From the NCBI RefSeq assembly GCF_054482595.1, contig NZ_CM137008.1: 64,000 nucleotides of DNA. One strand, written 5' to 3'. Positions 54,001 to 60,000 of the stretch are shown one piece after another. The position numbers are program-made. Positions within the stretch are counted from its first letter, which is position 1; each line of letters starts with the position of its first letter.

Positions 54001-57000
54001 CACCAGTCCGCGAGGCAGTCATGTCGCAGATGCCGACCGTTACGATCTCGGGCAAGGTGCCGGGTTTTACCTGAACGCGACGCAAGCGCCGTGGAATGAA
54101 CATTACAAAATGTATGACTATATCCGCAACGAGCTGCCGGATTTAGTGATGAATCATTTTCCGGCAACGGCCAAAAAGTCTATCTCTGGTCATTCTATGG
54201 GCGGACTGGGCGCGCTGGTGCTGGCGTTACGTAACCCAGATGAATATGTCAGCGTCTCGGCGTTTTCGCCCATTGTCTCCCCATCGCAAGTGCCGTGGGG
54301 ACAGCAAGCCTTTGCTGCATATCTTGGTGAAAATAAAGAGGCCTGGTTGGATTACGACCCGGTGAGTCTTATTTCACAAGGTCAACGCGTTGCGGAAATC
54401 ATGGTTGATCAGGGGTTGAGTGATGATTTTTACGCGGAACAGCTGCGGACTCAAAATCTTGAAAAGATCTGCCAGGAGATGAATATCAAGACGTTAATCC
54501 GTTATCACGAGGGTTACGACCACAGCTATTATTTTGTCTCCAGTTTTATTGGCGAGCATATTGCCTACCACGCCAATAAACTGAATATGCGTTAATAATA
54601 GTGCACGACTGCCGGATGCGGCGTGAACGCCTTATCCGCCTACATTTCGCCCGCAGGCCGTAGGCATGATAAGACGCGCATAGCGTCGCATCAGGCATCT
54701 GCGCACGACTGCCGGATGCGGCGTGAACACCTTATCCGGCCAACATTTCGCCCGTAAACCGTAGGCCTGATAAGACGCGCAAGCGTCGCATCAGGCATCT
54801 GCGCTCAACTGCCGGATGCGGCGTAAACGCCTTATCCGGCCTACATTTCGCCCATAAACCGTAGGCCTGATAAGACGCGCATAGCGTCGCATCAGGCATC
54901 TGCGCACGACTTATCTATGTTTACCACATCAAATCATCAGGCACTTTGAAGTCGGCATACGGATCGTCTTCATCCTGCTCTTCGGCACTGAGCGCGCAAT
55001 GCAACACAATACTGCTGGCATCACGCTGAGCAATTTTATCGGCAACGCTGGCGGGAATAATGGCGTATTCACCTTCGCTATTGTTATCGACCAACAAGCG
55101 GGCAATCGCCAGACGACCATTAATCAACTGCGCCTGTGTGAGCTTATCGACAAAAATCTTCTTAATCAGATTGCCGTCAGTGAAGTTAAAACCAATATCG
55201 CCATTGGCAATGGTGATCCGGTTCATTTCAATAAGCTGCTTCACCTGAGCTTTATATTCTTTCGCCAACGCCGCTTGTTTTTGCTGTTCGCTAAGCTGTT
55301 TATCACGCTCAAGCTGTGCCTTTTTATTTTCTTCTACCGCAGCCCGAGCTTCACGCGCCTGAACGCGCGATTTTTTCGCCGTTCTCTCGACCTTCGCCGC
55401 TTTTTTGCTGGTGACTAATCCTGCTTTGAGCAACTGCTCTTGTAAGGTAAGTTTTGCCATCTTTGTTTCCAAACCCGCTGAATAATTTTTAGCGAGTATA
55501 CCTGTAAACGCCGTGGGTGTATTGGGGGCAAGTCCCTTTCGCCCCTGCTTAATAAGGCGCGTCAGGCATCGGCACACGGCTGCATTCTTGATCTCCGACT
55601 CATCAAAATAAACACCGCCAACCCCGCAACAAGAATACCCGGTGCAGAAGCGGCCATTACGCCGACCGTGCCAGTGCCTAATGCCAGCATTTTCCCGGCC
55701 AGTAACGGACCGCTCATAGCCCCCAGACGCCCTACCGCCACGGCTGTTCCCACACCTGTTGCGCGGATCTGCGAACTGTAAAACAACGGTGCCAGGGCAT
55801 ACAAAACGCTTTGCCCACCTGTCGCAAACAACCCCGCGACAAATCCCGCCAGCAACATACCGTTAAATGACGACACCGTTCCAAGCGCCAGCAGCGAAGT
55901 TAACATGCCGCTATAAATCAGTAGCGACATGGTTACTGGACGCAGCTTATCCATCAATGCGCCCAACATTAACGTCCCGCTCGCCGCACCCATTTGCAGT
56001 GCAAACATCACCCCTGCCGCCTGCGATGGCTGGAATCCTTGCTCCACCAAAAGCAGCGGTAGCCAGTTGATCAACATGTAAACCACCAGCAGAGTGAAGA
56101 AATAACACAGCCACAGCAGCAGCGTCGCGGTTGCCGTTTCTGGCGCAAATAACGCACGCAGTGGTGGCGCAGCCTGTTTTTCGCCAGCGAAAACCGCCGA
56201 CTCCGGCAGCCAGCGCATTAATAGCGGCACCAGAATCAACGGCACCACACCACCTACCCAAAACACCGTTTGCCATGCTAAGTTTGCCCCCGCGAAACCC
56301 AGTGTCGCCGCCAGCGCCGCGCCAATGGGAACACCGCAATACATCAGGCTCACTGCCGTCCCACGAAAACGTGGACCCGCGGCTTCAGACGTCAGGGCGA
56401 TAAGATTCGGCAACGCCGCCCCCAGCCCGACACCGGTCATCAGCCGCGCAAAGACCAGTGAGGGGAAATCCCAGGCAATCGCCGTTGCCAGTGAGAACAA
56501 ACCAAACAGCGCAACTGAGCCAATCAAAATGCGCTTGCGACCATAACGGTCCGCCAGCATTCCGCCAACCAACGCGCCGGGTAGTAAACCGAGTATTCCG
56601 GCGCTGAATATCCAGCCCATTTGCATTTTATCGAGTGCGAAAGCCTGGGCGATGCCACCCGCCGCAATGCCAGCCGCCTGAAGATCCAGCCCTTCCATCA
56701 GAGCGACCAAAAAACAAAGCCCGATGGTCAGCATCAGGCGGGATGAAGATGATGAAGGGGTACGAGTCGACATAAGATGAACCTCGTTGCGAGTGCAGGT
56801 GAATCGCGACTGATACATTGCCAGCCGCGTAATCAGAACTATTTAATGACTGCCTACGGGCGAAATGTAGGCCGGATAAGGCGTTCACGCCGCATCCGGC
56901 AGTCGTGTGCAGATGCCTGATGCGACGCTTGCGCGTCTTATCAGGCCTACAAATTCCCGCGCCATCCGTAGGCCGGATAAGGCGTTTACGCCGCATCCGG

Positions 57001-60000
57001 CAGTCGTGCGCAGATGCCTGATGCGACGCTTGCGCGTCTTATCAGGCCTACAAATTCCCGCGCCATCCGTAGGCCGGATAAGGCGTTCACGCCGCATCCG
57101 GCAGTCGTGTGCAGATGCCTGATGCGACGCTTGCGCGTCTTATCAGGCCTACAAATTCTCGCGCCATCCGTAGGCCGGATAAGGCGTTCACGCCGCATCC
57201 GGCAGTCGGGTGCAGATGCCTGATGCGACGCTAACGCGTCTTATCAGGCCTACAAATTCTCACGCCACCCGTAGGCCGGATAAGGCGTTTACCGCATCCG
57301 GCAGTCGTGCTGGGATGGGCATACAAAATGCACGTTCTCGGCAGTCAATATTATTTGTTGTTGCGCAGATCCAGCGCCACGTCGACGATCATATCCTCCT
57401 GGCCGCCAACCATCCGGCGTTTGCCCAGCTCAACGAGAATATCCACCGCGCTTAAGCCATAACGCGCCGCCGCCGTTTCACAGTGACGCAGGAAGCTGGA
57501 GTAAACACCAGCGTATCCCAGCGCCAGCGTTTCGCGATCGACTCGTACCGGACGATCCTGCAACGGACGCACCAGGTCGTCAGCGGCATCCATTAACGCA
57601 TAGAGATCGGCCCCATGCTGCCAACCCAGTTTATCCACGGCGGCAATAAATACTTCCAGCGGCGCGTTACCTGCGCCCGCGCCCATTCCCGCGAGGCTGG
57701 CGTCGATTCGGTCGCAGCCCTCTTCCACCGCCGCGATAGAGTTCGCCACGCCAAGACTCAGGTTATGGTGAGCGTGCATGCCGGTTTGCGTTTCTGGTTT
57801 CAGCACTGCTTTCAGGGCGCGGAAACGGTCACGGATATCGCTCATGTTCATCGCACCGCCAGAATCCACCACATAAATACAGGTCGCACCGTAGCCTTCC
57901 ATCAGCTTTGCCTGCTTGGCGAGATTCTCCGGCGTGGTCATATGGCTCATCATCAGAAAACCAACGGTGTCCATTCCGAGCTCGCGGGCATACTGAATAT
58001 GCTGGGCGGAAACATCAGCTTCGGTACAGTGCGTTGCCACACGAACCACCCGCGCGCCAGCCTGCCAGGCATTTTTCAGATCGTGAATAGTGCCGATTCC
58101 TGGCAGCAACAACGTCGCGATTTTGGCGTGCTTCACCACATCCGCCGCCGCTTCAATCCATTCAAGGTCGCTATGTGCGCCGAAACCATAGTTAAAGCTG
58201 GAACCCTGCAAACCGTCGCCGTGGGCCACTTCAATCGAATCCACGCGGGCATCGTCCAGTGCTTTGGCAATCTGGCGAACGTTTTCCAGCGAATACTGAT
58301 GACGAATGGCGTGCATACCGTCACGCAACGTGACGTCCGAGATATAAAGTTTTTTACCGTTCATGCCGCTTCTCCTGCCTTGCGCGCCAGTGACTGGGCC
58401 ATTTTTTCCGCTGTCGCCAGCGCACTGGAAGTCATAATGTCGAGGTTGCCCGCATAGGCAGGCAGATAATGCGCTGCGCCTTCGACTTCCAGCCAGACCG
58501 CCGTTTTCAGCCCGGAGAACTGACCCACGCCCGGCAAATTAACCGGTTTATCCTGCGGGATAACTTCAAACTGCACGCGCTGTTTCAGGCGATATCCCGG
58601 TACGTAAGCCTGCACCGCCTCAGCCATTTCATTGATTGAGGCTTCGATATCATCTTGTGAAGCTTCGTCGCTCAATACATACACCGTGTCACGCATCATC
58701 AACGGTGGCTCTGCTGGGTTAAGCACGATAATTGCCTTCCCTTTTGCCGCGCCGCCCACCACTTCAATGGCTCGGGAAGTGGTTTCCGTAAATTCATCGA
58801 TATTGGCACGCGTGCCAGGTCCGGCAGATTTACTGGCGATAGAAGCGATAATTTCGGCGTAATGAACACGCGCCACGCGTGAAACTGCCGCCACCATTGG
58901 AATGGTGGCCTGGCCGCCGCAGGTGACCATATTGACGTTCAGTTGTTCGACATTCGCATCAAGGTTAACCACCGGCACGCAGTAAGGGCCGATGGCAGCA
59001 GGCGTCAGGTCGATTAAGCGAATATCCGGTTTCGCTTCGCGCAAAGCGGCATCGTTTTTCACATGTGCGCCCGCGCTGGTCGCATCAAATACAATGTCGA
59101 TATCAGCAAATTCAGGCATGTTCATCAGCCCGATCACCCCTTCATGGGTGGTGGCGACGCCCATACGTCTGGCACGCGCCAGACCGTCGGACTGAGGATC
59201 AATACCGACCATCACCGCCATCTCCAGATGCTGACCGTGACGCAAAATTTTAATCATCAGATCGGTGCCAATGTTGCCAGAACCGATAATGGCGACTTTA
59301 CGCTTACTCATGACAGACTTCCTTTTGGGGCTGCGCTTGAAAATGTCGCAGCAACTGAACCTATGCCTTCAATATGGGCTTCAAAACGATCGCCCGCATT
59401 CACTGCCACCATCGGACCTAATGCCCCGGTAAGAATGATATCTCCGGCGCGCAGCGGTTCACCCAGACTGGCCATTTTGCGTGCCAGCCAGACGGCGGCA
59501 TTAAGCGGATGTCCTAGGCATTCGCTGCCGCGCCCGCTGGAAACCTCTTCGTTATTACGCGTCATCTTCATGGCGCAGTTTTTCAGGTCTAACCCCGCCG
59601 GACGTTGCGCCGGACCGCCGATGACATACACCCCGCAGGAAGCGTTATCTGCCACGGTATCGACAAACTGAATCGACCAGTCGCGAATGCGGCTCCCCAC
59701 CACCTCCAGCGCCGGAAGTACCCATTCAATGGCGTTATACAATTCGTCGAAGGTGATATCGGTTGCGGGCAAATCGCGGTTCAACACCAGTGCGATCTCC
59801 GCTTCAATGCGGGGTTGCAGAACACGGGAAAAAGGAATGGTTTCGTTATCGCCATAACACATGTCGGCAAATAACGTCCCGAAATCCGGTTGATCAACGC
59901 CCAGTTGTTGCTGCACTTTCGGATGTGTCAGGCCCACTTTACGCCCCACCACGCGACGCCCCTGCGCAACGTCATATTGCACATTTATGTGCTGAATGGC

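Follow-up and report, generated by a model that had tools for sequence, protein, structure and literature searches.

Two runs of a repeat of about 100 bp lie close together between the frm and mhp genes in the 64,000-nt stretch analysed here (contig NZ_CM137008.1 of assembly GCF_054482595.1; hereafter the window). They raise the question of which kind of element they are, whether they are peculiar to this strain, and what they may do to the genes on either side. Both intervals can be assigned with high confidence to the class 2 bacterial interspersed mosaic elements (BIME-2), which are built of repetitive extragenic palindromic (REP) sequences, and are this strain's counterparts of the arrays REP31 and, very probably, REP32 of Escherichia coli K-12. 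Both arrays already figure in K-12 catalogues, as members of a repeat class on record since 1991, and the finding as such is not new. They are referred to below as A1 and A2:

54603–54911, no strand assigned: array A1, BIME-2, very probably EcoCyc REP32 (from Tandem Repeats Finder, register print, Rfam and the published BIME-2 list).
56849–57304, no strand assigned: array A2, BIME-2, homologue of EcoCyc REP31 (from Tandem Repeats Finder, register print, Rfam and published K-12 tables).

As scanned over the whole window with Tandem Repeats Finder, A2 is reported at 56867–57309 (period 101 bp, 4.4 copies, 95% matches without indels, score 802) and A1 at 54603–54911 (period 100 bp, 3.1 copies, 91% matches, score 534), while no other array with a period above 24 bp is found. 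Self-identity, which is 0.307 ± 0.045 in the window background, rises to 0.924 in A2 at a lag of 101 and to 0.665 in A1 at a lag of 100, and the best 400-bp tiles of the window by this measure all overlap or abut the two intervals. A first-pass annotation had placed about 4.5 copies of a unit of about 101 bp at 56845–57310 and about three copies at 54600–54905, after frmB, and had named a periodicity of about 100 bp as the point to be checked; since the predicted arrays and the lag self-identity stand above background, those coordinates, the period and the copy numbers are correct. The approximately 20 bp by which the earlier left edge (56845) precedes the boundary given by Tandem Repeats Finder are a genuine fragment of a further unit, as indicated by an inverted-repeat pair (I21) and by strain comparison.

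A REP was defined as an imperfect palindrome of about 34–37 nt with the head GCC[G/T]GATG and the tail CTTATC[C/A]GGCCTAC. Eleven exact matches to this pattern are present across both arrays, together with four edge or variant copies recognised in register prints, and this bears out the earlier description of REP palindromes in alternating orientation, arranged as tandem BIME units. The sequences are also dispersed, the two array queries having a median of at least 27 and at least 36 matching places per E. coli genome, and both arrays are wholly intergenic, A1 lying between two gene 3' ends and A2 after the stop codon of mhpE. According to Ton-Hoang et al. (PMC3333891), BIME-2 combine z2 and y REPs in tandem copies with a short S linker, s/l/r flanks and a strain-variable copy number, while BIME-1 are single copies of z1 and y with a long L linker that often bears a site for integration host factor (IHF). 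A2 is composed of Y (minus strand)/Z2 (plus strand) four times and then Y (minus strand), and A1 of Y (plus strand)/Z2 (minus strand) three times. The head-to-head linkers measure 12–14 nt and the tail-to-tail linkers 16 nt (A1) or 17 nt (A2), with no long L linker, and the tandem copies (4.4 in A2, 3.1 in A1) range across genomes from n = 0 to 4 and from one to three pairs, respectively.

Read on the plus strand, A2 opens with a left remnant, after which come nine REPs in the order Y(Z2-Y)x4 (register prints). Its unit comprises a Y REP (minus strand, 34 nt), a head-to-head linker (GTCGTGYGCAGA with flanking bases), a Z2 REP (plus strand, 36 nt) and a 17-nt tail-to-tail linker (AAATTCYCRCGCCAYCC):

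56849–56866, no strand assigned: left-edge remnant GCCTAC + GGGCGAAAT, a Z2 tail with a tail-to-tail linker of the A1 type (I21, strain comparison).
56867–56900, minus strand: Y REP of unit 1, GCCGGATGCGGCGTGAACGCCTTATCCGGCCTAC on the minus strand (pattern scan, hairpin folds).
56915–56950, plus strand: Z2 REP of unit 1, GCCTGATGCGACGCTTGCGCGTCTTATCAGGCCTAC (pattern scan, hairpin folds).
56968–57001, minus strand: Y REP of unit 2 (pattern scan, RNA fold).
57016–57051, plus strand: Z2 REP of unit 2 (pattern scan, RNA fold).
57069–57102, minus strand: Y REP of unit 3 (pattern scan, RNA fold).
57117–57152, plus strand: Z2 REP of unit 3 (pattern scan, RNA fold).
57170–57203, minus strand: Y REP of unit 4 (pattern scan, RNA fold).
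57218–57253, plus strand: Z2 REP of unit 4, with the loop CTAACG as in K-12 (pattern scan, register print, RNA fold).
57271–57303, minus strand: terminal, mhpE-proximal Y REP that lacks one nucleotide, with 46 nt between it and the stop codon of mhpE (register print, RNA fold).

None of the strains examined lacks the left remnant, not even those whose site holds a single Y REP. A1 contains three Y (plus strand)/Z2 (minus strand) pairs with the 16-nt tail-to-tail linker ATTTCGCCCRYARRCC, which is unlike that of A2 (register print):

54611–54643, plus strand: Y REP with a 1-nt deletion, its stem beginning 15 nt past the frmB stop codon at 54593–54595 (sequence, register print, RNA fold).
54661–54697, minus strand: Z2 REP variant with ATCATGCC in the tail (register print, RNA fold).
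54711–54744, plus strand: Y REP variant (register print, RNA fold).
54761–54796, minus strand: Z2 REP (register print, DNA and RNA folds).
54811–54844, plus strand: Y REP (register print, DNA and RNA folds).
54861–54897, minus strand: Z2 REP, 23 nt from the yaiL stop codon at 54921–54923 (register print, RNA fold).

This composition bears directly on the IHF binding that the first-pass annotation had considered possible. BIME-1 of the RIP/RIB type, IHF-binding elements responsible for DNA bending at transcription-unit 3' ends, resemble the arrays in having a Y REP and in sitting at gene 3' ends, and some BIMEs are associated with IHF in a general way; however, BIME-1 needs z1, an L linker with its IHF site and a single copy, whereas every non-Y REP in the arrays is Z2, the linkers are 12–17 nt long and the units are in tandem. 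A consensus scan of the window and the arrays for the IHF core WATCAANNNNTTR gave no match in either array with one mismatch allowed, and the published list of BIME-1 (PMC6379681) contains neither of the two loci. IHF binding was thus rejected at the level of sequence, and the probability of a BIME-1 identity is negligible. The intervals are not CRISPR arrays either, as the palindromes alternate in orientation and the would-be spacers are repeated linkers.

In K-12, REP31 is listed as 'Tandem' at MG1655 375366-374931, mhpE/mhpT (supplement of bioRxiv 10.64898/2026.03.23.713779), and Table DS3 of Sutormin et al. (PMC6379681) contains the entries 'BIMEs2 374155-374590' (435 bp) and 'BIMEs2 376560-376746' (186 bp) in W3110-MuSGS coordinates. 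Conversion to MG1655 uses an offset of +776, by which 376,560-376,746 becomes 377,336-377,522. A REP scan locates the yaiL-frmB array at MG1655 377,335-377,521, and the DS3 entries plus 776 coincide with it and with REP31. REP31a-g and REP32a-d are named together in a mobilome preprint (bioRxiv 10.1101/2024.07.17.603846), and the four palindromic units of 'REP32a-d' match the K-12 arrangement Y-Z2-Y-Z2 at yaiL-frmB. A1 is therefore very probably REP32, as judged by the numbering order and the count of four palindromic units and not by a table stating the name.

The K-12 arrays, both classed as BIME-2, share loci, flanks and unit architecture with those of the window, which across both arrays is 100% identical to the complete genome of E. 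coli XH990 and about 97% identical to K-12. A2 and REP31 (about 97% identity) are of equal length, with a mhpE-mhpT gap of 577 bp in both. They differ in the Z2 loops, three of the four being CTTGCG in the window and all four CTAACG in K-12, and in the position of the degenerate edge unit, which is mhpT-proximal in REP31 but mhpE-proximal in A2. A1 has three Y/Z2 pairs (gap 325 bp) as against two in K-12 (gap 223 bp).

The first-pass annotation had also suggested that the copy number may differ between strains, and this holds at both sites. A query consisting of nothing but the unique flanks, able to detect arrays of up to about eight units, was used to survey the A2 locus in every complete E. 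coli genome of RefSeq, and the mhpE-mhpT locus is present in 4,923 of 5,426 genomes. The remaining approximately 500 of the 5,426 gave no match to the unique mhpT-mhpE flanks, and presumably lack this part of the mhp cluster or have it rearranged. The span between the flanks, 1201 bp in the window, was read from 58 evenly spaced records having both flanks:

1201–1203 bp: 15 of 58 records (about 26%), n = 4, K-12 included.
About 1100 bp: 3 of 58 records, n = 3.
1001 bp: 3 of 58 records, n = 2.
898 bp: 7 of 58 records, n = 1.
799–803 bp: 30 of 58 records (about 52%), n = 0, O157:H7 included.

No longer span occurs among the 58 sampled records. The sequences of eight strains give the site the form Y(Z2-Y)n, with n = 0–4 and identical left and right flanks. 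At the A1 site, 31 of 60 sampled records have a span of about 900 bp (one pair), 25 of about 1000 bp (two pairs, as in K-12) and one of 1101 bp (three pairs, as in the window).

Short reads can lead to the wrong assembly of 100-bp tandem repeats, and the unit numbers could in principle reflect collapse or expansion of repeats during assembly, a check that the first-pass annotation had called for. Comparison with other complete genomes makes this explanation vanishingly improbable. The arrays of the window are 100% identical to those in the complete genome of XH990, the four-unit A2 is also found in MG1655 and in many independent complete genomes, and at least 29 complete genomes, independent of one another and differing in host and country, carry the rare three-pair A1 allele, 14 of them with 100% identity. 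The three-pair A1 is therefore real and rare, and not an assembly error. In practice, short-read assembly and read mapping are unreliable at these arrays.

Strains of equal flank divergence carry different numbers of A2 units, which suggests repeated changes. E. coli R32_14_1F has private variants common to all three of its units (linker GCGCCATT and loop CTGACG), and such variants, together with the degenerate edge units, form the pattern produced by unequal exchange or slippage between tandem units, the mechanism to which the pattern points. Unit identity is 0.805 within strains and 0.794 between strains in an ungapped comparison that is shifted by 1-nt indels and for that reason says nothing on concerted evolution. 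R32_14_1F (NZ_CP074749.1; L007 3909-4317) belongs to a divergent lineage of about 92.5% identity with three units; at its right boundary a truncated Z2 is fused to TGGGATGGG instead of a Y REP, and the annotation gives its mhpE 6 additional bp (1020 bp in all).

The genes around the arrays were identified from the list of open reading frames (ORFs) and from the RefSeq annotation of identical or near-identical genomes. Their order is frmR, frmA and frmB (plus strand), A1, yaiL and mhpT (minus strand), A2, and mhpE, mhpF and mhpD (minus strand), the immediate neighbours (ORF and RefSeq annotation) being:

53762–54595, plus strand: frmB (fghA), S-formylglutathione hydrolase, whose 3' untranslated region (UTR) runs into A1.
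54921–55460, minus strand: yaiL (DUF2058), whose 3' UTR runs into A1 from the opposite side.
55562–56773, minus strand: mhpT, 3-(3-hydroxyphenyl)propionate transporter, transcriptionally downstream of A2.
57351–58364, minus strand: mhpE, 4-hydroxy-2-oxovalerate aldolase, transcriptionally upstream of A2.

A1 fills the gap between the stop codons of the convergent genes frmB (54595, plus strand) and yaiL (54921, minus strand), and A2 fills that from the stop codon of mhpE (57351) to the start codon of mhpT (56773), both genes lying on the minus strand.

The most likely role of the arrays, as judged by analogy and predicted folding, is that of a structured 3'-UTR or intercistronic element, which would serve as a barrier to messenger RNA (mRNA) decay and as a partial attenuator. 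Individual REPs of the arrays are computed to form DNA hairpins of -11 to -12 kcal/mol and RNA hairpins of about -20 kcal/mol in either orientation. The Y REP of A2 unit 1 gives -12.1 kcal/mol as DNA (z = -4.5) and about -20 kcal/mol as RNA on either strand, while the terminal Y REP of A2 forms a weaker RNA hairpin (-15 to -17 kcal/mol). The mhp-sense transcript of A2 (511 nt) has a predicted fold of -280 kcal/mol (z = -13.4), and the frmB-sense transcript of A1 one of -151 kcal/mol (z = -6.3). Once transcribed, the REPs would fold into hairpins of about -20 kcal/mol, and the stack may block 3'-to-5' exonucleases and so protect the mhpABCDFE, frmRAB and yaiL messages. The same stack may act as a partial, partly Rho-dependent attenuator of read-through, by which less transcription would reach mhpT across A2, and A1 would insulate the two convergent genes from each other. 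The arrays contain no terminator-like site of the intrinsic (Rho-independent) kind, the REP hairpins lacking a following T-run; no intrinsic terminators or sigma-70 promoters were found in or beside the arrays, the counts of the region being not above those of shuffled sequences. REPs situated at most 15 nt from a stop codon stall ribosomes, by a rule cited in PMC12306157; the frmB stop codon, 15 nt from the first REP stem, would stand at the limit for such stalling.

The closest experimental parallel is REP325 of K-12, which makes yjdM mRNA more stable and also attenuates transcription into yjdN, in part through Rho (bioRxiv 10.64898/2026.03.23.713779). Direct comparison used the MG1655 sequence of REP325. 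Like A2, it belongs to BIME-2, repeats a Y + Z2 unit of about 100 bp and is flanked by two genes that share a strand (yjdM-yjdN). The Y REP, the Z2 REP and the tail-to-tail linker (AAATTCCCGC.CC.TCC) of the two are nearly identical, the head-to-head linker differs (GTCGTGYGCAGA in A2 against ACGGTGCCGAC in REP325), and A2 has 4.4 units compared with six. For A1, the same preprint reports a correlation between the presence of REPs in the gap of a convergent gene pair and higher expression of both members.

At the DNA level, the Y REPs may be preferred but weak sites of gyrase cleavage. BIME-2 are enriched in gyrase cleavage sites, with y REPs preferred. In published K-12 Topo-seq data three cleavage sites trapped by ciprofloxacin (Cfx) fall in REP31 and none in REP32 (PMC6379681). 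The Cfx sites of REP31 are at 374227, 374263 and 374465 in W3110-MuSGS coordinates, with N3E values of 6-8 (PMC6379681); two of them are exactly 202 bp apart and, after the offset, occupy the same position of two Y REPs. The gyrase sites suggested at first pass thus have a counterpart in the K-12 homologue of the larger array but none in that of the smaller one. The BIME-2 arrays cleaved by gyrase at tldD-yhdP, eco-mqo and sucB-sucC belong to the same repeat class as REP31, but tldD-yhdP has 35 cleavage sites and eco-mqo 11, compared with three in REP31.

Several points weigh against these proposed roles. Terminal REPs did not lengthen mRNA half-lives genome-wide (bioRxiv 10.64898/2026.03.23.713779), and a stabilising role therefore depends on context. 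About half of the sampled E. coli genomes bearing the locus carry a single Y REP between mhpE and mhpT, and the array as such is therefore dispensable. The orientation of A2 to operon transcription is inverted relative to that of REP325, with similar hairpin energies both ways. No sigma-70-like promoter turned up in the scan of the stretch from A2 to mhpT, a result that fits read-through but is weak evidence. The gyrase signal of REP31 is weak, is absent with rifampicin plus Cfx, with microcin B17 and with oxolinic acid, and has no equivalent in REP32 (PMC6379681), and the mapping of Topo-seq reads is ambiguous in near-identical units.

The frequency of the single Y REP is also an argument for regarding the arrays as selfish or neutral repeats similar to REPINs (REP doublets forming hairpins), dependent on the REP-associated transposase (RAYT) and of no function to the host, whose unit number merely drifts. 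About 52% of sampled genomes have the single REP, and all numbers in between also occur; the copy number differs among strains with equal flank divergence; BIME-2 in general gain and lose units (PMC3333891); and RAREFAN classes REP31 and REP32 as RAYT-associated REPINs (bioRxiv 10.1101/2024.07.17.603846). The Y-Z2 pairs of the arrays can likewise fold into one long hairpin, as do REPINs, which are doublets mobilised by RAYT/TnpA-REP; REPINs, however, are dispersed as single doublets, whereas the doublets of A1 and A2 are amplified in tandem at a fixed site. At least one REP is retained at both sites in all strains examined, both sites are gene 3' ends, as is typical for REPs, and REP325, of the same architecture, measurably alters the expression of both neighbouring genes (bioRxiv 10.64898/2026.03.23.713779). 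Neutrality is compatible with local mRNA effects and does not exclude them. A purely neutral array is a serious candidate, albeit on balance a rather unlikely one.

The unit number of A2 (0-4, even among close relatives) might form a heritable, strain-specific dial on mhpT transcription and on the survival of the mhpABCDFE message, a conjecture to which only a low probability is given. If true, natural copy-number alleles would differ in the uptake and catabolism of 3-hydroxyphenylpropionate. With 0-4 units separating two genes that belong to one catabolic operon, the locus provides a natural allelic series in which the recently proposed dual terminator/stabiliser role of REP arrays could be tested free of engineering. 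Variation in unit number at BIME-2 loci is already documented.

Similarity to REP325 also invites the reading of the arrays as clusters of naRNA4-like genes, the two-hairpin RNAs of which would bind the nucleoid protein HU, bridge cruciform DNA and condense the chromosome, a role originally put forward for REP325. Against the Rfam model RF02564 (naRNA4, the RNA of REP325; gathering score 59.5), A2 has four matches of 83.6-91.3 bits on the plus strand and A1 two of 89.9 and 71.8 bits on the minus strand, six in total at 72-91 bits on the better-matching strand; Y, Z2 and the tail-to-tail linker are common to the array units and REP325, and condensation dependent on HU and naRNA4 was reported by Qian et al. 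2015 (PMC4550694). The model, however, describes in effect any Y-linker-Z2 unit of BIME-2, and a match therefore shows the repeat family and not a function. The naRNA4-matching strand is antisense to mhpE and mhpT in A2, and in A1 it is yaiL-sense. Moreover, deletion or overexpression of REP325 left the nucleoid volume unchanged, and neither a stable ternary complex nor REP-REP contacts dependent on HU were found, in a preprint (bioRxiv 10.64898/2026.03.23.713779) whose authors include one of the original naRNA4 report. An naRNA4-like function is thus very unlikely.

Recombination, also raised by the first-pass annotation, is supported only in the sense that whole units are gained or lost in register, and not as inversion between the arrays. 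Changes in unit number may arise by unequal recombination or replication slippage between the direct repeats, possibly aided by the REP-associated transposase TnpA-REP. A1 and A2 are mutually inverted (up to 96 nt, 95% complementary) and bracket the 2-kb yaiL-mhpT segment, but a chimeric query for the junction of an inverted yaiL-mhpT segment matched none of 5,418 E. coli genomes. In a weaker variant of the dial proposed for A2, the mutually inverted, gyrase-prone arrays might delimit yaiL-mhpT as a small topological unit.

The arrays also generate overlapping ORFs of 41-122 amino acids on both strands, which owe their existence solely to the repeat period and the frames that it leaves open on either strand. 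The peptide MRRERLIRPTDGAGICRPDKTRKRRIRHL opens a 70-residue ORF at 56885–57097 (minus strand), and a near-identical 70-residue ORF lies one unit further on. Such ORFs, and the 'hypothetical protein' annotated in them in some genomes by the Prokaryotic Genome Annotation Pipeline (PGAP), could be taken for real small arginine-rich proteins. This has hardly any probability, as ORF length follows the unit number and the ORFs are gone in the approximately 52% of sampled strains with a single REP, none of the array ORFs has a Pfam match at E <= 1, and the PGAP feature is flagged as a frameshifted, incomplete pseudogene. The earlier view of these ORFs as spurious products of the arrays is therefore upheld, and ORF calls inside BIME-2 arrays should be suppressed.

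Further observations concern the surroundings of the arrays and their K-12 homologues. An in-vitro Rho site dependent on NusG has been mapped at MG1655 375,401-375,492 (approximately window 56740–56831), antisense to the mhpT 5' UTR and 35 bp from REP31 (bioRxiv 10.64898/2026.03.23.713779). REP31a-g and REP32a-d are two of only eight among 355 REP regions with raised exonuclease-protected coverage under sodium dodecyl sulfate (SDS) or copper stress, with no circular junction reads for either (bioRxiv 10.1101/2024.07.17.603846). Two further REP sites are present in the window, both below the Rfam naRNA4 threshold: a single Y/Z2 tail-to-tail pair with an 18-nt linker at 15568–15656, between convergent ORFs ending at 15539 and 15682, and a lone REP at 17646–17682, between convergent ORFs ending at 17626 and 17704.

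A degenerate BIME fragment is also found at the 3' end of mhpT, where the last seven codons and the TGA (...QPCADA-stop) lie within a head-to-head linker and REP head, GCAGCCGTGTGCCGATGCCTGA, at 55558–55600. The spurious ORFs of the arrays end in ...QSCADA-stop, in the same frame as the mhpT tail, so that mhpT seems to owe its C-terminal tail and its stop codon to a REP remnant. In E. coli TUM2820 (NZ_CP135688.1; L005 2063-3274), a single case, a strain with a three-unit array, mhpT is annotated as a pseudogene with an internal stop.

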